This document shows, one piece after another, positions 3,598-18,165 of a DNA stretch of 21,778 nt. Each line of letters opens with the position of its first letter. Position 1 is the stretch's first letter. A program made the translations under genes and the position numbers. The stretch is from the UHGV virus genome UHGV-0133264; one strand, 5' to 3'. The notes beneath the pieces were generated by a model. It saw only the letters and a list, made by a program, of their open reading frames with translations, ran no database searches and was not told the origin of the DNA. The DNA comes from a virus.

Positions 3598-4188
<591 letters not shown>

Positions 4189-4318
4189 TTAACCGATTCT
4201 ACGAGTAGTCATTTGTTCATTGAGTAGGAATATTGTTGTCTGGGGGGTAATCAGTGTAGGTGGAATGAGGGATATGATATGGTTATCACATAATCAGGTT
4301 GTTTTGAGTAAAACAATA

Positions 4319-5727: not shown

Positions 5728-5744
5728 AATGCTCTAATAAATTT
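5728..5744 (+). promoter_or_regulatory. C1 repressor operator (Op51-type), 16/17 match to ATTGCTCTAATAAATTT
   Basis: AATGCTCTAATAAATTT seen directly. Sits between the divergent sim-like operon and the c4-icd-ant operon, about 40 bp upstream of a consensus promoter. Confidence 0.7.
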
Positions 5745-8315: not shown

Positions 8316-9161
8316 ATGCTGGCTAAAGTCACTTTCCTGAGCTGTATAACGATGAGCGATTTTACTTTTTCTGGCTATGAATTGGCCTGCTTTGTAACAC
8401 ACTCCGGTCTATCCCGTAGCGCCGGGCATATCCTGTCGCAATGTGCAAATCTCGCGGCAACAACCAGTGAATACTTCATTCACAAGCCTCACCGCCTGAT
8501 CGCGGCAGAAACTGGTTATAGCCAATCAACCGTCGTTCGTGCATTCCGTGAAGCTGTAAACAAAGGAATCCTGTCTGTAGAGATTGTTATCGGCGATCAC
8601 CGTGAACGCCGCGCTAACCTGTACCGGTTTACACCATCCTTTTTGGCCTTCGCACAACAAGCTAAAAACGCGCTGACTGAAAGCAAATTAAAGATCTCTT
8701 CAGCCGCAACCAAGGTTAAAGCTGTTCTCGCTAAGACATTGGCTTTATTTGATTTTTTATCCACACCCCCATGTCAAAATGATACCCCCTCCCCCTGTCA
8801 GGATGACGTGGCAATAAAGAATAAGAAGTCACAAGTTAAAAAAACAAAAAGATCAGTTTCCGGCGGTGCCGGAACGACCAGACTCAAAAAATTGACTTCA
8901 TGGATCGCTGAGGCAAAAGCAAAGGCTGACAATCTGCGGTTATCCAAAAAACGCGCTCAAAAACATGAGTTCAAGCAGAAAGTAGAGGCGGCTGCGCGGA
9001 AATATGCTTACCTGAAGAACAAGCGTTCGCCTGATATTGGCGGGATATCAAACTTCGATAACCTACCGCATTGCATGACGGTAAACGAAGCTCTTAATGC
9101 GGTTTTAGCCAAAAATAAAGATAACGAACAATGGGGTATACCGGCGGGATTCAGAGGGTGA
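8316..9161 (+). CDS. repL: RepL, initiator of the lytic replicon (origin expected inside the gene)
   Basis: 281-aa ORF directly downstream of kilA under the Op53 operator. The stretch from MSDFTFSGYELACFV onward matches my recollection of P1 RepL. An alternative start at Met 13 (8352) is possible. Confidence 0.75.
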   Translation: MLAKVTFLSCITMSDFTFSGYELACFVTHSGLSRSAGHILSQCANLAATTSEYFIHKPHRLIAAETGYSQSTVVRAFREAVNKGILSVEIVIGDHRERRANLYRFTPSFLAFAQQAKNALTESKLKISSAATKVKAVLAKTLALFDFLSTPPCQNDTPSPCQDDVAIKNKKSQVKKTKRSVSGGAGTTRLKKLTSWIAEAKAKADNLRLSKKRAQKHEFKQKVEAAARKYAYLKNKRSPDIGGISNFDNLPHCMTVNEALNAVLAKNKDNEQWGIPAGFRG

Positions 9162-10363: not shown

Positions 10364-10386
10364 TAAAAAAAGCTCCCGAAGGAGCT
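10364..10386 (-). terminator. Rho-independent terminator ending the late head/sheath/tube operon
   Basis: On the minus strand: stem AGCTCC, loop TTCG, stem GGAGCT, followed by TTTTTTT. Lies about 20 bp after the stop of the 169-aa gene. Confidence 0.7.
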
Positions 10387-10407
10387 TTAAAATACAAGGG
10401 ATGACTC

Positions 10408-10917
10408 TTAATCCCACTCAATCCAGTTGTAGACGATACGAAGTGACGGGCGCACAGCGGCAGTCACATCTTCGGTACTAAAGTCGATTGCATCACTGTA
10501 GATTTTGCAGTCCAACATTTCAATTGTTGTAGCAGCTTTTGTCACAGCGTTAACCCCGGAAGATTTGGATTCAGGGGTAGCAGCCATCGTGATATCAACA
10601 TAGTCCTTCGCCGCAATGCGATCCTTAATGAACTGAAGAATATCGCCTTCGATAGTCTCCACGCACTGGACCTGGATTTCCCCAGAGTTTCGAATTGGTC
10701 CGTGCTGGTTGAACTTCACACCATTCGGACCATAGTCCTCCACATCCTCGCGGGTCATTTCAGGAATTTGCGACGTGCGAACCAGTACACTGATATCTTC
10801 ATAGCCTGCAAAAGTGAGCTGGAATTCAGACGATACCAGACGTTCGCCTTTAGCCGCGTTGGCAGTATAGCGGCCCTTAATAAATTTACGGTTTCCCTTA
10901 GTGTTATTGTGCCCCAT
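10408..10917 (-). CDS. Tail tube-like protein (gp19-type fold suspected)
   Basis: 169-aa beta-rich ORF, last gene of the operon. The C-terminus RIVYNWIEWD resembles the T4 gp19 C-terminal LALDYWE motif. Recalled motif only. Confidence 0.45.
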   Translation of the reverse strand: MGHNNTKGNRKFIKGRYTANAAKGERLVSSEFQLTFAGYEDISVLVRTSQIPEMTREDVEDYGPNGVKFNQHGPIRNSGEIQVQCVETIEGDILQFIKDRIAAKDYVDITMAATPESKSSGVNAVTKAATTIEMLDCKIYSDAIDFSTEDVTAAVRPSLRIVYNWIEWD

Positions 10918-10928
10918 ATAAAATCCTT

Positions 10929-11510
10929 TTACTGGAACGCCCGAACAATATCGGAACTGTTATATATCGAAGAACCGGTCAACTGGAGGTTGACGGTGTT
11001 TTTCAGGAAATGCCCATTGCTGTCCCTGGGCGCATCGAGATCGAAACTTATGTCCTGGATAGCGACATCAATGATGTTGATCCGGCGACCAATGTTTAGC
11101 GTCACCCGCTCCGGGATTCGACCACCAATACTGGCGTCTTTAAGTTCCGGGCTAATCATTGCTGACAACGCGGCGATAGCACCTGAAACTTCCGTATATG
11201 GGTTAAACAAAGCAATGAAAATTACTGGCAGCGTGAACGTCGGCGGAGTTCCCCCCTCCCAAACCATTAAGCTGTTCCAACGGGCAACTGACGTTGTTTC
11301 AGTACCAACCTGCGCAAAACCACTGAAGGCACCAGCAACAGAACCCATAGACATACCAGTAAACGGCGCTTCCCAATTCTGGGCCAGATTCATTGCCGCC
11401 CCCTGGCTGATATATCCGGTAACCTGGTACTGAGAGTTCGTTAAAGTAACTTTCAGAAATGGCGATACACCGTCAGCCTGGCTGTAAACCCCAAAAGGTA
11501 TAGGTGCCAT
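10929..11510 (-). CDS. Tail/baseplate structural protein (P1 bplB/pmgG position)
   Basis: 193-aa ORF tightly packed in the late operon. Gly/Ser/Thr-rich, beta-type composition. Confidence 0.45.
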   Translation of the reverse strand: MAPIPFGVYSQADGVSPFLKVTLTNSQYQVTGYISQGAAMNLAQNWEAPFTGMSMGSVAGAFSGFAQVGTETTSVARWNSLMVWEGGTPPTFTLPVIFIALFNPYTEVSGAIAALSAMISPELKDASIGGRIPERVTLNIGRRINIIDVAIQDISFDLDAPRDSNGHFLKNTVNLQLTGSSIYNSSDIVRAFQ

Positions 11511-11545
11511 TCAAGTTAAAGGCCGGAGTTCTCCGGCCTCCTCCT

Positions 11546-12361
11546 TTAGCCGAGGCGCTTACGGCGCAGTTTCATTGACTTTTTGCGGGCCAGTTTTGCC
11601 GCGCCGGTCTGGGCTTTACGACGCGCTTTTTTCAGCGCCGATTTTTGAGCCGCAGTCAGACGTTTTTTACGCAGACGTTTACGGATGAGTTTGATCTCGC
11701 CGTTACGAACAACCTTCTTAAATGCTTCAGTCAGCATTTCATCAGAAGTGCCAGCAACAACAAACGCCGCTTCAAGTTCGTCGCGGTCGTCGCTATCCAA
11801 ACCAGCGATAGCGGAACCAACATCAGCAGCTGCGTCGTCGTCTTCATCGTCGGCCAATGCTTCGATCAGGTCATCATCTACACCGCATGCTGCGAGGAAG
11901 TCAGCAACATTTGCCCATGCTTCGTTATAGGCATCGTCCTGTTCTTCTGTAACTTCGGTATCGTCGTCGTCAGAGATACCAGCAATAGCCTGAACGAAAC
12001 CATCAAGGGAGTCGAAAGTCAGATCACCGCTATCAGCCCAGGCGAAAACGGCATCGGCCGCATTACTCAACGCATTCTGCATAGCACTTCGATTTGCAGC
12101 TTCCAGAATCATCTTGTGCGCCTGTTCGACGGTCCATTCTTTACCTTCTTTCCCTTCCAGGATTTGCTCAGGTGCCGGGTCAGATTGAACGTTCTCGTTA
12201 ATCTGTGCCGCCGGTTCCGGATTATTATTAATCACCGGTTCGGTTGGCGGTTGGGCACTTGCACGGGCAGATTCCATTAACTGCACCGGATCAGCGTTCA
12301 AAGCGAAACGGGACAATTCATTCCCCAAAAATGCCCCTGATTGAAAAAAGTTTTTGCTCAT
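11546..12361 (-). CDS. Acidic/basic bipartite protein of the late operon
   Basis: 271 aa. Central region is extremely acidic (DDDDTEVTEEQDD..., DDEDDDAAAD, DSDDRDELE). The C-terminal ~55 aa are strongly basic (KLIRKRLRKKRLTAAQKSALKKARRKAQTGAAKLARKKSMKLRRKRLG). The antisense ORFs at 11645-12280 and 11685-11930 are artefacts. Confidence 0.6.
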   Translation of the reverse strand: MSKNFFQSGAFLGNELSRFALNADPVQLMESARASAQPPTEPVINNNPEPAAQINENVQSDPAPEQILEGKEGKEWTVEQAHKMILEAANRSAMQNALSNAADAVFAWADSGDLTFDSLDGFVQAIAGISDDDDTEVTEEQDDAYNEAWANVADFLAACGVDDDLIEALADDEDDDAAADVGSAIAGLDSDDRDELEAAFVVAGTSDEMLTEAFKKVVRNGEIKLIRKRLRKKRLTAAQKSALKKARRKAQTGAAKLARKKSMKLRRKRLG

Positions 12362-12370
12362 TGTATTCCC

Positions 12371-13960
12371 TTACTTAATAAGCAGCGGTACGCCCTGGAT
12401 ACGACGGGCTACACCTGTCGGGCAGCAGGCCCAGACCACTTCCCATTTATCGAATTCCGCCTGCGTAACTTTCAGCACATACGGTTCTGTACCGTCAGCA
12501 TCCGGATCACGCGGAGCCACCAGAGCGCCAGAGGCGACAAAGCGATCTAAAAGTTTGGTCATCCCTTTAGTCAGGCCAGACTCAGTAATGCCGTCCGGGT
12601 TATGCTTCATCTGTCGGGCTAGCTGGACAAAGAAACGGCTGATTGCGTTCATCAAGGATGGTACGTGCTGGAAATGCAGATAGTTGTCCTGCGTGCAGCA
12701 AGTTAAAGCATCATCGATGATCATCTGGCCAGAGGTGCCTACAGATACTTTATTGAGACGCCCCTTAACCATAGCTTCTTCGTCCGGGGTGTCTTCCGGA
12801 TACAGCGGCTGAAGTGATGCTCGAGCAATGACGGCACGTTCTTCACCAGCCGGTGAGTAATGCCAACCGCCGACATCGGAGTTTTTCTTAACGCCACGAG
12901 CTTTCGCCGCATACGCCGCGCCAGACAGACCGAAGACCACACGGGATTGGGTCCATTTGTCTTTGCAGGAGAACGGAAAGTGATAGACAGCACAGCTTAC
13001 ATAATCGGTACCAAGTAAACCGGTATCTTCAACAGCAGAGATCGCTTCCGTGTACGTCAATGTCGGTTTGACATCAAAGAAGCCATCAATCAGGCGATCA
13101 GAACAGATATTACCTAACGCGGTGATCGCCGCATTGTCATAGCAACCCAGGCCGAGAACAGCGGTGTACATGTACGGCGCATTGTTCAGCACTTTCACCG
13201 CACGCAGGTAAGCAGCAGTTGAGATTTTCGACTGATCGCCGTTGGTACCGCCAGTGAACGCCAGCGATTTTTTATTTGTTACTTTCGCGGTAGAAATCAG
13301 CTCTTCATTAACAACCGCGCGCAGATATTTAGAACGGGCTTCCAGAGCCGTAGGCAGATAACACAAGCGGCCCATGTCATCTTTCGCTTCTTCCGCCAAA
13401 GATACAATATGTGTCTCCAGGGTCGTAACCACACCGAGCGAAGTCGTCTGGGTCAGTTTCAGGAGGAAGCGTTCATTACCTGCGCTGTCCGCAGCTGCCG
13501 TTTCGATGGTTAACTCACGCGTAGGTGAAACGCATGGGTCGCCGTCATCAACGTAGATCGCAAAGGCTTCGCCGCTATCAAGTTCAATTTCAGAACCGTA
13601 TGGCAACGCGCTGTAAGCCGGTTCGCCTGATTCATCGAACATAATAATCGGGAACTTCGCATCATCCGGAACAGCACGAACAACATAACCAGACGTTTGC
13701 TGAATAGCTTCGTACACATGACGAATTGGTTCGAACTGTGAGCCGGAAGACGGCTTCAGCGGTTCGCCGAGAACATCTTCGTAATTAGACTCAGTAACAG
13801 CGAGAACAGTAAACGGCTTGCCACGCGCAAATACGCCAATACCAGCCCATAAGCTGCTATTTAATGCAACACCGGTAGATAACGTCGCATCGGCATTGAT
13901 CGGGCTAACCGCTACGCCGGATGCATTACCTAATGACTGTTGAATTGAATATTGAGACAT
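12371..13960 (-). CDS. Tail sheath protein (P1 gene 22 position)
   Basis: 529-aa ORF immediately downstream of the major head gene and upstream of the tube/baseplate genes. AGGGAAAG Shine-Dalgarno. Assignment by synteny and size, not by alignment. Confidence 0.5.
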   Translation of the reverse strand: MSQYSIQQSLGNASGVAVSPINADATLSTGVALNSSLWAGIGVFARGKPFTVLAVTESNYEDVLGEPLKPSSGSQFEPIRHVYEAIQQTSGYVVRAVPDDAKFPIIMFDESGEPAYSALPYGSEIELDSGEAFAIYVDDGDPCVSPTRELTIETAAADSAGNERFLLKLTQTTSLGVVTTLETHIVSLAEEAKDDMGRLCYLPTALEARSKYLRAVVNEELISTAKVTNKKSLAFTGGTNGDQSKISTAAYLRAVKVLNNAPYMYTAVLGLGCYDNAAITALGNICSDRLIDGFFDVKPTLTYTEAISAVEDTGLLGTDYVSCAVYHFPFSCKDKWTQSRVVFGLSGAAYAAKARGVKKNSDVGGWHYSPAGEERAVIARASLQPLYPEDTPDEEAMVKGRLNKVSVGTSGQMIIDDALTCCTQDNYLHFQHVPSLMNAISRFFVQLARQMKHNPDGITESGLTKGMTKLLDRFVASGALVAPRDPDADGTEPYVLKVTQAEFDKWEVVWACCPTGVARRIQGVPLLIK

Positions 13961-14020: not shown

Positions 14021-15748
14021 TTACTCAGAGTCACCAGCATCAATCGTGTTACCGGTCAGGAAGTTAATTCCGCCATTTTTTGCCATAGTCAGAGTTACAC
14101 GGGTGAAGTAGTCAGCACCGTTGCGTGGATGCATATCGTTGATAGCAGAACCCCACAGAGTGGTTCGGTTGACCAGTGCCGGGGTGGTCGGATGCTGGAA
14201 TGGGATAGCCGGGACCGCATCACCAGTCACGAAGCCTGCCTTGCCCGGATTTTCATCACGGACGTAGCACAGCACATCCATCGGGCTGAACTGGATACCT
14301 TCGGCGGTCAGGTTCGTGCAAATACCTTCAGGTACTTCGTACACCTTCACGTTACCGAACAGGGTGCCGATGAAGTGAACGTACGGAGTCTGGGTATATT
14401 CTTCAGCTGGCTGGAAGAAATCCTTCGGAAGCTGTTTGAAGAAAGATGCAGCATCAGCACCAGCAAACATCCCCATCGCACCAGAAGATTTAACGCGCTC
14501 AATAATGTCGCGATATACAGTCTGGAATTTGCCGCGAATGATGGTTGCCCATACATCAAAGGACTGGTTAACCGGCAGAGCGATGTCAAAGGAGTCGGTC
14601 GCAAGAGTACGCCAGATCATGATGCGAAGACGCAGCATATCCTGTTCATGAGACAGGTATTCCTTCAGGGTGCGGAACTGTAGGGACCCCAGGTCCAGAC
14701 CAAACTCACGCTGTGCTTCATACGCCGCCTGTACCGTGTGCTCAGCCGCGATGACGAACTGGCTTGGGAACAGGGTGTAACTCTTCATTTCGTGGTTGAT
14801 AAGTGGGATCAGCTCAGGAGCTGCTTCAATATTGATCTCCGCCTCAATGGCGATCTCTGTACCTTTATCCGGCGCTTTGGAGAACGACAGGGCAATCTGA
14901 CCAATGTTGTAGTTCAGAGAGCAGGTAACAGTAATTTGTTCGCCAGCTTTGTTATTGAATGTGTGAAGCAGAGTACCGGAGCCGTTATCAACAACAGACT
15001 TAATGCGGTTAACGTAGATATTTGTACGGCCTTTGCGGATCGGGACATTCTGGCCTTCAAAGTCTTCCATCTTGAAGGTTGCGGTTTTGCTGGTGCCATC
15101 GGAACTTGCCACCAACACATAGCGGCGGCGCAGTTGGCTATACACACCAACAGATTGCATATCCAGAACATCACCCGAAGCATAAGAACCAAAAGAGGAA
15201 CCCGCTACGTTAAAGATTTCATAGATTTCGGACTTGTCACGCGTAACTGGAATGAAGGTACACGCATCAGCGGTAGCTGCCCCCAACTGAACAGGCAGGA
15301 TCATCGCGAGGAATAAAGGCAGACGCATAACACCGTCAGAAACGCTCATCATCTCTGCTGCGACGGATTCCAGCATCGCTTTATTGGTGGCATCCATGCT
15401 ATTGCGGGTGGACTCAATCAGGCAGTTTTCCAGAGTCTGGTGGCAGGAGGCCAGAATTTCCGGACGCGGCATAGATTTATGTGCTGCGGCGTAGTCAGCC
15501 AGTGCACTTGCCCACGCTGTAGCGATTTGAGCAGTGGCATTATCAGAGATACCTGCAAAAATCGGGTCTTTGCGTGCAGCTTCAAGGATAGATGCGGCAC
15601 GTGCGGCATCATCTTTGATGAATTGGTTATCAGTACCGAACTGTGCTGTACTTGCCCAGCCAAGAACGGCTTTAGAGCGTTTTGCGATATCTGCAATACG
15701 ATTCTGGTATTCGCGTAAGTTACTCAAGTTACTCTTCCTTAAACACAA
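14021..15748 (-). CDS. Major head (capsid) protein precursor (P1 gene 23 position)
   Basis: 575-aa ORF adjacent to parS. N-terminal ~130 aa are Ala-rich and helical, consistent with a cleaved delta/scaffold domain. The listed start is TTG; a second TTG seven codons in is preceded by AAGGAAGAG and is the more likely start. Confidence 0.55.
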   Translation of the reverse strand: MCLRKSNLSNLREYQNRIADIAKRSKAVLGWASTAQFGTDNQFIKDDAARAASILEAARKDPIFAGISDNATAQIATAWASALADYAAAHKSMPRPEILASCHQTLENCLIESTRNSMDATNKAMLESVAAEMMSVSDGVMRLPLFLAMILPVQLGAATADACTFIPVTRDKSEIYEIFNVAGSSFGSYASGDVLDMQSVGVYSQLRRRYVLVASSDGTSKTATFKMEDFEGQNVPIRKGRTNIYVNRIKSVVDNGSGTLLHTFNNKAGEQITVTCSLNYNIGQIALSFSKAPDKGTEIAIEAEINIEAAPELIPLINHEMKSYTLFPSQFVIAAEHTVQAAYEAQREFGLDLGSLQFRTLKEYLSHEQDMLRLRIMIWRTLATDSFDIALPVNQSFDVWATIIRGKFQTVYRDIIERVKSSGAMGMFAGADAASFFKQLPKDFFQPAEEYTQTPYVHFIGTLFGNVKVYEVPEGICTNLTAEGIQFSPMDVLCYVRDENPGKAGFVTGDAVPAIPFQHPTTPALVNRTTLWGSAINDMHPRNGADYFTRVTLTMAKNGGINFLTGNTIDAGDSE

Positions 15749-15849
15749 GGCACTTGTGTGAATCCCTTTTCGGAAGAGATTTTATTGAAAGTCACTTGTT
15801 GACTTTCTCACGAAAAGTAATTTTTTAAATTTTTTATGCGGGGAAGTGG

Positions 15850-15950
15850 ACGGTGAAAGCAGGCGTTAAATCGTGGGAATTTCAGTCTGAAATTTTTCTA
15901 AAAAATATATTCAAATCATAATATTAGAAATGAAATTGGCGCGGGACATT
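15850..15950. promoter_or_regulatory. parS: parS partition site (ParB box A/B motifs flanking an AT-rich IHF-type core)
   Basis: Just 3' of parB. Heptamers ATTTCAG/TGAAATT/ATTTCAT and hexamer-like TCCCAC/GCGCCA motifs surround an AT-rich stretch (TTTTTCTAAAAAATATATTCAAATCATAATATTAG). Boundaries approximate. Confidence 0.55.
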
Positions 15951-15991
15951 TTAGGAAGGGGAGGGGCTAACACCACCTCCCACCAGCAGGT

Positions 15992-16957
15992 TTATTTTCC
16001 TGCGGACATTTTCTCAATGATTTTTTTTATTGCTTCGTCAATTTCAGTTTGCACTTCAGACGGGAGTCGGGAGAACTCGTAGGCGACTACCCGTTTTTTC
16101 GGATCGGTCTTCTTTCGTGCGTACTGGCGTCGGTCAGAGAAATCTCGCAGCTTCTCTACCACTACAGATTTAACCGGCGCAGGTTTCAGGCTTTTGCTTT
16201 CCGCTTTGAAGATAGCCAGTATCTTCGCTTTATCCTCTTTCGCGCCCTCAGTCTCTGCAATTCGCTCGCGCACCGTATCAACCAGTTCTCCAATCGGTAC
16301 GTTTTTAGCGTTAGCATCTTCGGAGATCTGGAGCAGCAACTGATAATCAGGCAGGGCGAGATCGCTGGCAACAGGGAAGACAGCAATCATCTCATCCGGC
16401 ACCGCCGCAGCCTGGAAAGCTCGCGTCACTTTAGCCTTTGAGATGTTCTCAGCGCGGGCGATCTCTTCTTTGGTCATGCTCTTACCGTACATAACCTCAA
16501 AGCGTTTACCCAGCTCGCGCAGAGTGTGTTCGCGAGCTGTCTGGATATCAATGGCCAGCTGGCGGGCATCCGCCAAGCTGATCTCATCTTTTGTCACCAG
16601 AATCTCAAATTTCGTTTCATTGAAGATACACGCAGCGCGGCGGCGTGATCCGTCCAATACCTCAATGCGCTCCCCAACCATACGACCGATAGCCGGGAAG
16701 AACTGTTGCAATTTAATGGTGCGGGAAATATCGCTTACCGACTCAGGAGTAAGCAGAGACTGATCGCGGCCGTTAACTGCCGGGTCAACGAACGTGCGCG
16801 ACTCAATCTCACCACTCAGCACAACGGTAAGCAAAAATTTAGCCTGGCGGCCAGATTTTAGGGTAAAGGTTTTGGTGCCTTCACTGCCTTCAAGCATGCG
16901 AGCAAACTCGGAGCTATTCTTGCCCAGCACTCGTCCACGGGAAACTATTTTCTTCAT
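15992..16957 (-). CDS. parB: ParB partition protein (centromere-binding)
   Basis: 321 aa. Contains the ParB-family motif VLDGSRRR and a helix-turn-helix region (ISKAKVTRAF). Start overlaps the parA stop by 4 nt. Confidence 0.9.
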   Translation of the reverse strand: MKKIVSRGRVLGKNSSEFARMLEGSEGTKTFTLKSGRQAKFLLTVVLSGEIESRTFVDPAVNGRDQSLLTPESVSDISRTIKLQQFFPAIGRMVGERIEVLDGSRRRAACIFNETKFEILVTKDEISLADARQLAIDIQTAREHTLRELGKRFEVMYGKSMTKEEIARAENISKAKVTRAFQAAAVPDEMIAVFPVASDLALPDYQLLLQISEDANAKNVPIGELVDTVRERIAETEGAKEDKAKILAIFKAESKSLKPAPVKSVVVEKLRDFSDRRQYARKKTDPKKRVVAYEFSRLPSEVQTEIDEAIKKIIEKMSAGK

Positions 16958-18165
16958 GCCGACTCACCCCTTACAAACTCAATCCGATCAAACACAGCCT
17001 TAGTGAAACGCTCGGCCTCGGTTCGTGCCTTCTTCAGTGCCTCAGCACTGCCTGGATATGATTGCGGGTTGGCACTGATTACGGTGTCGAAAGACTCGCC
17101 GCATCGCTCGAAGCCATCCAGGCGAGGCAGAGAAGAGTCCAGAATGTTGCTGGCGTAAACCTCGCGCGCAAGGCTGTGTGATGTCTCGTGATCACGCTTG
17201 CCGGTCATCTTCGACATAAAACCAATGCTGGCGCTTAAACGCGGCTCTACGCCTTCCTCCTCCAGTTGCTCCAGCATTTCTGGCAGACGGGTGAGATATT
17301 TCAGAGTTGAGTGGAAGTCAACCTGGGCTGGTGGGGTAGGGGTAAGCAACAGATCGCTTGCCGCCAGACCGTTAAGCAGGAACGGATCCAAGTGCGGACC
17401 GGTATCGATAAAGATAAAGTCATAATCATCAGCAACACGATCAATGATATTGCGTCGAAGGATTTCGTACTGATTTTGTCCAGGAAGATGCTCTTCAACC
17501 AGCTCTTTCCATTGGCTGGCAACAAAGCCATCGTCGATAGAGGCTGGAATCACGTCTACGCCGGGAACGATGGTCGGACGAATCACCTCTTTGCGTAGCG
17601 TCTCCGCGTCCAGGTCGTTCAGCATCGCCTGCGCGGCTGTTTCCAGAATGGATCCAATACTGTGAGTATGGTCGAGGAACATTGTGCTGGATGCCTGCGG
17701 GTCAAGGTCAATAACCAGAATGCGCAGATCGTGACGCAGTAAATCCTGATGCACACGCAGCGCGTGCGCCAGCGTGACTGTGGAAACCGTTTTAGATACG
17801 CCACCTTTCAGGTTTACGACAAAAATAACGTAAGGCGATTTGTGAATGTCGCGATATTTGGGAATCTTGCGGTGGGCATAGATATCAATGACGTTCTGGA
17901 TAGTGAGCGCGTACTGTTCAACGTTACCGACCTGTTTCTTGTTGAACTGGTACCCATCATCTTCCATCTCTTTGATGGCCTGCTCCACAATGCGGCGGCT
18001 CAGCTTCGGCAACTTTGCCACAGCGTTACGAGTAAACGTCTGATAATACTCGGTCTGATTGAACTCTTTGCGCTGATCTTCGATATCCTGGCTCATGGCC
18101 TTCAGCAATGCGCTTGCACGAAGAGCTATGGTGCCGACACCGCCGTAATCGCGTTTCATCATCAT
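16954..18165 (-). CDS. parA: ParA partition ATPase (type Ia, long N-terminal regulatory domain)
   Basis: 403 aa. Deviant Walker A NLKGGVSKTVST, Walker A' ILVIDLDPQ, Walker B FIFIDTGP. AAGGAG directly followed by ATGATGATG; the third ATG (18159) is the likeliest start. Confidence 0.9.
   Translation of the reverse strand: MMMKRDYGGVGTIALRASALLKAMSQDIEDQRKEFNQTEYYQTFTRNAVAKLPKLSRRIVEQAIKEMEDDGYQFNKKQVGNVEQYALTIQNVIDIYAHRKIPKYRDIHKSPYVIFVVNLKGGVSKTVSTVTLAHALRVHQDLLRHDLRILVIDLDPQASSTMFLDHTHSIGSILETAAQAMLNDLDAETLRKEVIRPTIVPGVDVIPASIDDGFVASQWKELVEEHLPGQNQYEILRRNIIDRVADDYDFIFIDTGPHLDPFLLNGLAASDLLLTPTPPAQVDFHSTLKYLTRLPEMLEQLEEEGVEPRLSASIGFMSKMTGKRDHETSHSLAREVYASNILDSSLPRLDGFERCGESFDTVISANPQSYPGSAEALKKARTEAERFTKAVFDRIEFVRGESA

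Follow-up and report, generated by a model that had tools for sequence, protein, structure and literature searches.

We show here that a palindrome and the adjoining -10 hexamer in a 21,778-nucleotide stretch of viral DNA (genome UHGV-0133264; hereafter the window) very probably (probability about 0.92) constitute LP23, the Lpa-dependent late promoter of the 23-22-21-pmgG-bplB operon, located 67 bp downstream of a P7-type parS. A preliminary description had proposed an activator-dependent late promoter at this position in which a palindrome replaces the -35 element, a proposal borne out by orthology to the annotated LP23 and by a fit to the late promoter consensus without mismatch. An activator-dependent promoter was thus correctly recognised from sequence alone by a reader working without tools, while the recognition unit is corrected from a 21-bp to a 9-bp palindrome. 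The identity of LP23 and the unusual -22 palindrome beside parS are already known, the P1 and P7 entries in GenBank having annotated them for about two decades. The LP23-parS layout is therefore real but ordinary and matters little as a discovery, the "PL23" plasmid already serving as a published Lpa-dependent lytic reporter in P1.

Results

Genome context and gene order

When compared with phage records by megablast, the whole window matched P7 (AF503408 45278-67536) and P1 (NC_005856 42428-64985) with 88-94% coverage and ~96% identity; it therefore belongs to a phage-plasmid of the P1/P7 type (Punavirus). The 1-kb region around LP23 matches 781 plasmid records, mainly from Escherichia and Salmonella. 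In P1 coordinates the window spans 42.4-65.0 kb and does not include lpa (P1 89991-90443, P7 96850-97302), which this genome is presumed to carry as its relatives do. The par genes, parS, LP23 and the head-operon genes are all located on the minus strand, as follows.

16954-18165, minus: parA, the par gene preceding parB
15992-16957, minus: parB, P7-type ParB of 321 aa, 99% identical to P7 ParB (Pfam PF08775, E = 3e-33)
15728-15771, minus: predicted 5' leader of the gene 23 mRNA, 43/44 identical to P1
15732-15740, minus: Shine-Dalgarno (SD) sequence AAGGAAGAG of gene 23, within the predicted leader
14021-15727, minus: gene 23, major head protein of 568 aa, TTG start, 96% identical to P1 gp23 over its full length
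12371-13960, minus: gene 22 (sheath), ORF length and order as in P1
11546-12361, minus: gene 21, ORF length and order as in P1
10929-11510, minus: pmgG, ORF length and order as in P1
10408-10917, minus: bplB, ORF length and order as in P1
10369-10388, minus: strong intrinsic-terminator-like hairpin, AAAGCTCC TTCG GGAGCTTT followed by TTTTAT, closing the presumed operon

Genes 22, 21, pmgG and bplB (10408-13960) form the remainder of the presumed LP23 operon, and all four have late kinetics in P1 RNA-seq (PMC8201110). By homology with P1, the start codon of gene 23 is TTG 15727, downstream of the SD sequence, and not the in-frame TTG at 15748. The intergenic region therefore extends over 15728-15991 (264 bp). 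The preliminary description had placed it at 15749-15991; its flanking genes, parB and gene 23, are supported by the identities of their products, and its gene 23 boundary is displaced by the TTG at 15727. A 9-nt tandem duplication, GAGTAACTT GAGTAACTT, spans the gene 23 TTG start codon (15717-15734, minus). Each copy differs by one mismatch from the Lpa box AAGTNACTT, and the first copy reads GAGTAAATT in P1.

The promoter element

The intergenic region contains the following promoter-associated features, the repeat and the minus-strand -10 element both lying where they had been reported from the letters alone.

15787-15807, either strand: perfect 21-bp inverted repeat GAAAGTCA-N5-TGACTTTC, exact, with a 5-nt spacer
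15789-15797, minus: 9-bp palindrome AAGTGACTT, the "-22 region" and presumed Lpa site, by orthology to P1/P7 LP23
15779-15784, minus: -10 hexamer TAAAAT of LP23, 4 nt downstream of the 9-bp palindrome

The hexamer is positioned 2 nt downstream of the 21-bp repeat, and TCAA forms the 4-nt spacer between AAGTGACTT and the -10. The 9-bp box covers most of the promoter-proximal arm of the 21-bp repeat together with part of its loop. LP23 is located 51 nt upstream of gene 23 and is oriented with the late head operon. Perfect inverted repeats with arms of 8 nt or more and a loop of at most 10 nt number only two in the intergenic region, the 21-bp repeat and the parS boxA2/A3 pair, which exceeds chance (mean of 0.13 in shuffled sequences; P(at least 2) = 0.027). 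The window contains three copies of the palindrome AAGTNACTT, compared with 0.25 copies expected, and among these copies only that of LP23 has a properly spaced -10. The full motif AAGTNACTT-N4-TANNNT has a single match without mismatch in the 21.8-kb window, and this match is LP23.

At the -35 position of LP23, GAAAGT at 17-nt spacing fits TTGACA at 1 of 6 positions, as read from the sequence. A consensus scan of 15600-16100 detected no sigma-70-type promoter, a terminator scan found no terminator in the parB-23 intergenic region, and no known RNA family was detected in 15600-16100 at E <= 1 (Rfam). A TTGACA-like hexamer (e.g. CTGACA, GTGACA, TTGACA, TCAACA) is present in all of the annotated P7 late promoters and at window 15798-15803; it ends at the first A of the Lpa box and lies 12 nt from the -10, not 17.

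Comparison with the annotated late promoters

The annotated "predicted late promoter LP23" occupies 58825-58843 in P1 (NC_005856; -22 region 58835-58843) and 61543-61561 in P7 (AF503408; -22 region 61553-61561). The -10 signal and -22 region of both map to window 15779-15784 and 15789-15797, respectively. The promoter core is 100% identical between the window and P1 (32/32), and the window from 15700 to ~15803 is essentially identical to both P1 and P7. Upstream, on the par side, identity to P1 is lower, the spacer matching at 34/52 positions and parS at 51/83. LP23 is described as predicted in both GenBank records, and no published 5'-end mapping for LP23 was found in the literature.

A late promoter consensus was derived from the nine promoters annotated in P7: LPmat, LPpro, LPlyz, LPdar, LPs, LPsit, LP23, LPdam2 and LPpac. 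These align as (A/G)AC-AAGTGACTT-N4-TANNNT, to which LP23 shows 0 mismatches. The 9-bp core is thus found at all nine, as had been anticipated for the palindrome, whereas the 21-bp version, and with it the left arm, is found at none other than LP23. The 21-bp palindrome does not hold as the promoter unit, the working unit being the 9-bp AAGTGACTT. A search of the window for palindrome copies also located LPsit, which is experimentally named, at 4196-4214 as AAATGACTA-ctcg-TAGAAT, with 2 mismatches to the full motif. A late-promoter-like sequence, AAGTGACTT-tagc-CAGCAT, is found at 8316-8334 (minus), antisense at the repL start codon and pointing into kilA. Its -10 is of the same type, CAGNAT, as that of the annotated LPmat (CAGAAT), and the motif is also present in P1 (L003 8327-8345), where it carries no promoter annotation.

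Conservation of the promoter core

Divergent lineages were represented by Cronobacter phage JK004 and Salmonella plasmids (including CP146848), whose gp23 is 77-79% identical. Both the JK004 and the Salmonella lineage retain the core GTCAACAAGTGACTT-N-CAATAA-N-AT unchanged, while the outer arm reads GTTT or GCTT in place of GAAA in the JK004/CP146848 lineage, 5 of the 8 arm positions still pairing. Among 99 IMG/VR contigs with the core, nearly all from the P1/P7 clade, the full 8/8 repeat is retained in 97; the outer arm bases of the 21-bp repeat are conserved in the P1/P7 clade only. Since the core is invariant while the outer arms diverge, the conserved functional unit would be the 9-bp box plus the -10. 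Lpa presumably acts in LP23 through the 9-bp box, and the 21-bp extension is a clade-specific feature, possibly without significance. In searches for further divergent lineages, the exact core was found in two lineages only. Diverged Lpa boxes are present in Ca. Pantoea alvi and Enterobacteriaceae B14 contigs, and the upstream region of D6-like elements is unrelated.

In Salmonella plasmid NZ_CP077703 (L009), positions 2225-2528, aligned with window 15700-16000, combine parS and the end of parB, both of P7 type, with a gene 23 of JK004 type, with the switch between par and head sequences located at the invariant promoter core. This location suggests that the core may act as a joint at which par cassettes and head modules recombine; cassettes and modules do reassort. 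The window itself pairs a P7-type par cassette with a P1-type gene 23.

The parS centromere

The centromere had been placed between parB and the head gene, and alignment with P7 confirms this location. Coordinates were transferred from P7 AF503408 by pairwise alignment, the individual sites being as follows.

15865-15947, minus: parS, P7 specificity type
15942-15947, minus: boxB1 GTCCCG, identical to P7
15930-15936, minus: boxA1, from the P7 alignment
15914-15926, minus: IHF site, from the P7 alignment
15887-15893, minus: boxA2, from the P7 alignment
15879-15885, minus: boxA3, from the P7 alignment
15874-15879, minus: boxB2 TTCCCA, identical to P7 (TCGCCA in P1)
15865-15871, minus: boxA4 ATTTAAC, from the P7 alignment
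15798-15864, minus: parS-Lpa box spacer, CT-rich at first, followed by an A/T tract (15819-15835) and the left arm of the repeat

All seven annotated P7 parS sites (four box A, two box B and the IHF site) map gap-free to 15865-15947, and the box B type agrees with that of the cognate ParB, both being of P7 specificity. By this alignment 15865-15947 is a P7-type parS, the predicted centromere just downstream of parB, and it simply ends the par module that neighbours LP23. TTTAAC is also found at the box A4 position in two genome contigs, from E. coli (L012) and Kluyvera (L013). Just past the parB stop lies a GC-rich hairpin (15954-16000, minus; main stem 15959-15981; -20.1 kcal/mol) without a U-tract. 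It falls within a segment of ~40 nt that is present in P7-type cassettes (the window, P7 and Salmonella CP077703) and missing from P1-type cassettes.

Proposed activation of LP23 and published P1 data

In the prophage, the C1 repressor would hold lpa off and LP23, lacking a -35, would be silent, with ParB and IHF expected on parS ~94-176 bp upstream of the predicted start. Upon induction or infection Lpa would be made and, together with host RNA polymerase (sigma-70) and host SspA, would activate promoters carrying AAGTGACTT near -22, that is, four bases upstream of a TANNNT -10. The transcript would begin near G15771 (minus), a start deduced from the -10 position, and would leave parS behind, extending through gene 23 as far as the terminator at 10369-10388. 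In P1, Lpa modulates host RNA polymerase and host SspA is needed (PMC8201110); late transcription is summarised in PMC10695390. The Lpa dependence, PL23 reporter, RNA-seq and CRISPRi data all derive from P1 and not from this element, the promoter sequence being identical in the two.

The published P1 expression data distinguish gene 23 from the par genes. Log fold changes at 10 and 30 min, respectively, are 9.46 and 11.46 for parA, 9.19 and 11.35 for parB, 5.44 and 12.07 for gene 23, and 4.68 and 11.45 for gene 22 (PMC8201110 Table S1); the changes are relative to each gene's own time 0, and therefore permit comparison of kinetics, not of absolute levels. Genes 23 and 22 follow the kinetics of the Lpa-controlled sit, S, pacA and mat (PMC8201110 Table S1). 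With parA and parB early and genes 23 and 22 late, the kinetic class changes exactly at the parB-23 junction. In P1 CRISPRi (dCas12a), parA and parB knockdowns were non-essential, with an EOP of about 1.3-1.6, and gene 23 was essential. Since roadblocks in parA and parB spare plating while gene 23 is essential, gene 23 is independent of par-operon transcription. These P1 results show that gene 23 is not transcribed by read-through only, in agreement with the reading of the element as a promoter.

Alternative explanations of the element

The 21-bp repeat could instead act as an RNA hairpin or terminator stopping par read-through, or as the operator of another dimeric regulator, and would then be no part of a promoter. 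As RNA it forms an 8-bp hairpin (-9.1 kcal/mol, z = -1.7), gene 23 RNA lags behind parB RNA at 10 min in P1 (PMC8201110), and the retention of the full repeat in the IMG/VR contigs is what such a role would favour. The stem is, however, weak and mostly A/U and is followed by the tail AAUAAAAUCUCUU in place of a U-tract, and the terminator scan of 15600-16100 was empty. The hairpin being weak and without a U-tract, the repeat is therefore not a terminator, and this candidate was rejected. A role for the repeat as a whole is also at odds with the reduced arm pairing in JK004/CP146848, where the 9-bp core and -10 are nevertheless invariant, and with the absence of the left arm from the other annotated P7 late promoters. 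No C1 operator occurs at the repeat or near LP23, the only matches in the window being at 5728 and 7401 (P1 Oc4 and OrepL), and C1-operator control of LP23 was accordingly discarded. We thus consider a terminator or foreign operator extremely unlikely. It is just as hard to credit that gene 23 is driven by ordinary sigma-70 promoters ("P1 23", "P2 23") in the spacer and parS, or by read-through from Ppar, with the palindrome incidental. The P1 record does predict two sigma-70 promoters over this region. Their hexamers are degraded in the window (-35 TTTTCG vs TTGTCA in P1; -10 AAAAAT vs TAAAAT in P1), the consensus scan yielded no such promoter, and in P1 late kinetics (PMC8201110) and Lpa dependence are reported and the parA/parB roadblocks are harmless.

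It had also been proposed that transcription across parS, or ParB spreading onto the late promoter, couples partition status to capsid expression. Such a role, in which the partition complex at parS also tunes LP23 by silencing or insulation, or in which transcription across parS links partition to the capsid, is very unlikely in our estimation. In its favour, box A4 and the Lpa box are separated by 66-68 nt in six sequences with different par cassettes and head modules and a diverged spacer, and by 64-69 nt in 92 IMG/VR contigs; in addition, no intrinsic terminator was found by scan between parB and 23, and P1 ParB spreads and, when overproduced, silences the genes beside it (Rodionov et al. 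1999, cited in PMC5002424). The same review considers ParB silencing a likely result of overexpression and dispensable for partition (PMC5002424). The constant spacing is weak evidence, because most of the compared sequences are close relatives and the spacing may reflect inheritance only. LP23 is directed away from parS, and therefore only par read-through from Ppar would cross the centromere. P1 RNA-seq shows the kinetic break at parB-23 (PMC8201110), roadblocks in parA and parB do not reduce plating in P1, and PL23 functions on a reporter plasmid. A Ca. Pantoea alvi relative (gp23 72% identical) has a similar gene 23 promoter with a terminator upstream and no parS, its gtcaacATATCACTTtccaTAAAAT lying 51 nt from the gene 23 homologue, the same distance as in the window, and in D6-type relatives the gene 23 homologue is apart from par. 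These relatives indicate that adjacency to parS is unnecessary for such a head-gene promoter. Thus partition-capsid coupling is unsupported, conserved parS-promoter spacing being the sole positive evidence, and the proposed link was not upheld.

The spacer retains its composition, CT-rich and then A/T-rich, across par cassette types despite sequence divergence. Its A/T tract (15819-15835), which covers roughly positions -48 to -64 of LP23, is reminiscent of an UP element.

Complementarity between the promoter and the ribosome binding site

The discriminator of LP23, CTCTTCC (15772-15778, minus), fills the 7 nt that separate the -10 from the predicted start and is complementary to GGAAGAG (15732-15738, minus) in the gene 23 SD. 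In the JK004/Salmonella lineage five pairs are kept in the same register with three compensatory double changes, a comparison that involves two lineages only; in the Pantoea alvi contig the discriminator-SD pairing is absent. Complementarity to the SD just upstream of the late start is also present at LPsit (9-11 nt), LPdar and LPpac. Cognate promoter/RBS duplexes average -8.2 kcal/mol compared with -7.2 kcal/mol for non-cognate pairs, a difference that is not significant (permutation p = 0.18), and folding z-scores are weak (-1.5 and -1.0). A general anti-SD rule for late promoters was consequently rejected on the permutation control, the weak z-scores and covariation from two lineages. At LPsit (4163-4214, minus), the -10 region, CGTAGAATC, could pair without mismatch with GATTCTACG, which adjoins the pmgC SD on its 5' side (duplex -19.7 kcal/mol). 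The upstream arm precedes the expected late start, and the hairpin would thus form only in RNA begun further upstream.

For gene 23, CTCTTCC might mask the SD only in read-through RNA, so that 23 would be translated only from LP23-initiated transcripts. A combined proposal, in which the conserved spacing reflects a functional link (ParB/IHF insulating LP23 or blocking read-through in the prophage), and/or CTCTTCC limits translation of 23 to LP23 transcripts, is very unlikely. If true, coupling would represent a new kind of communication between the maintenance of phage-plasmids and their lytic development.

Comparison with known systems

LP23 of the window corresponds closely with LP23 of P1 and P7, occupying the same place between parS and gene 23 and having the same AAGTGACTT, TCAA spacer, TAAAAT and leader. 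The other Lpa-dependent late promoters of P1 and P7 (LPsit, LPs, LPdar, LPmat, LPpro, LPlyz, LPpac and LPdam2) have the same architecture, without a -35. LP23 differs from the other P7 late promoters in the extra upstream AAGTCA that stretches its symmetry to 21 bp, and in having no C1 operator nearby from several other P7 late operons, for which one is annotated. The window does not conserve the auxiliary sigma-70 promoters that were predicted in P1.

Late promoters dependent on Ogr/Delta in P2/P4 and on C in Mu are likewise transcribed by sigma-70 RNA polymerase and combine a good -10 and a poor or absent -35 with a dyad-symmetric activator site. Their activators are unrelated and their sites are positioned differently, the LP23 dyad lying at -22 inside the spacer, and the likeness is therefore one of analogy only.

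On the partition side, the window parS has the same box order, spacing and IHF site as the IHF-bent centromeres of P1 and P7, differing at box A4 (ATTTAAC vs ATTTCAC in P1 and GTTTCAC in P7). The spacer between parS and the Lpa box is annotated as a "CT/AT-rich region" in the old P1 record K02380. Silencing by ParB and SopB beside plasmid centromeres (Rodionov et al. 1999; Lynch and Wang 1995, both as cited in PMC5002424) is the phenomenon on which the coupling idea relies; in P1, ParB binding extends from parS into adjoining DNA and silencing is observed mainly with overproduced ParB (PMC5002424).
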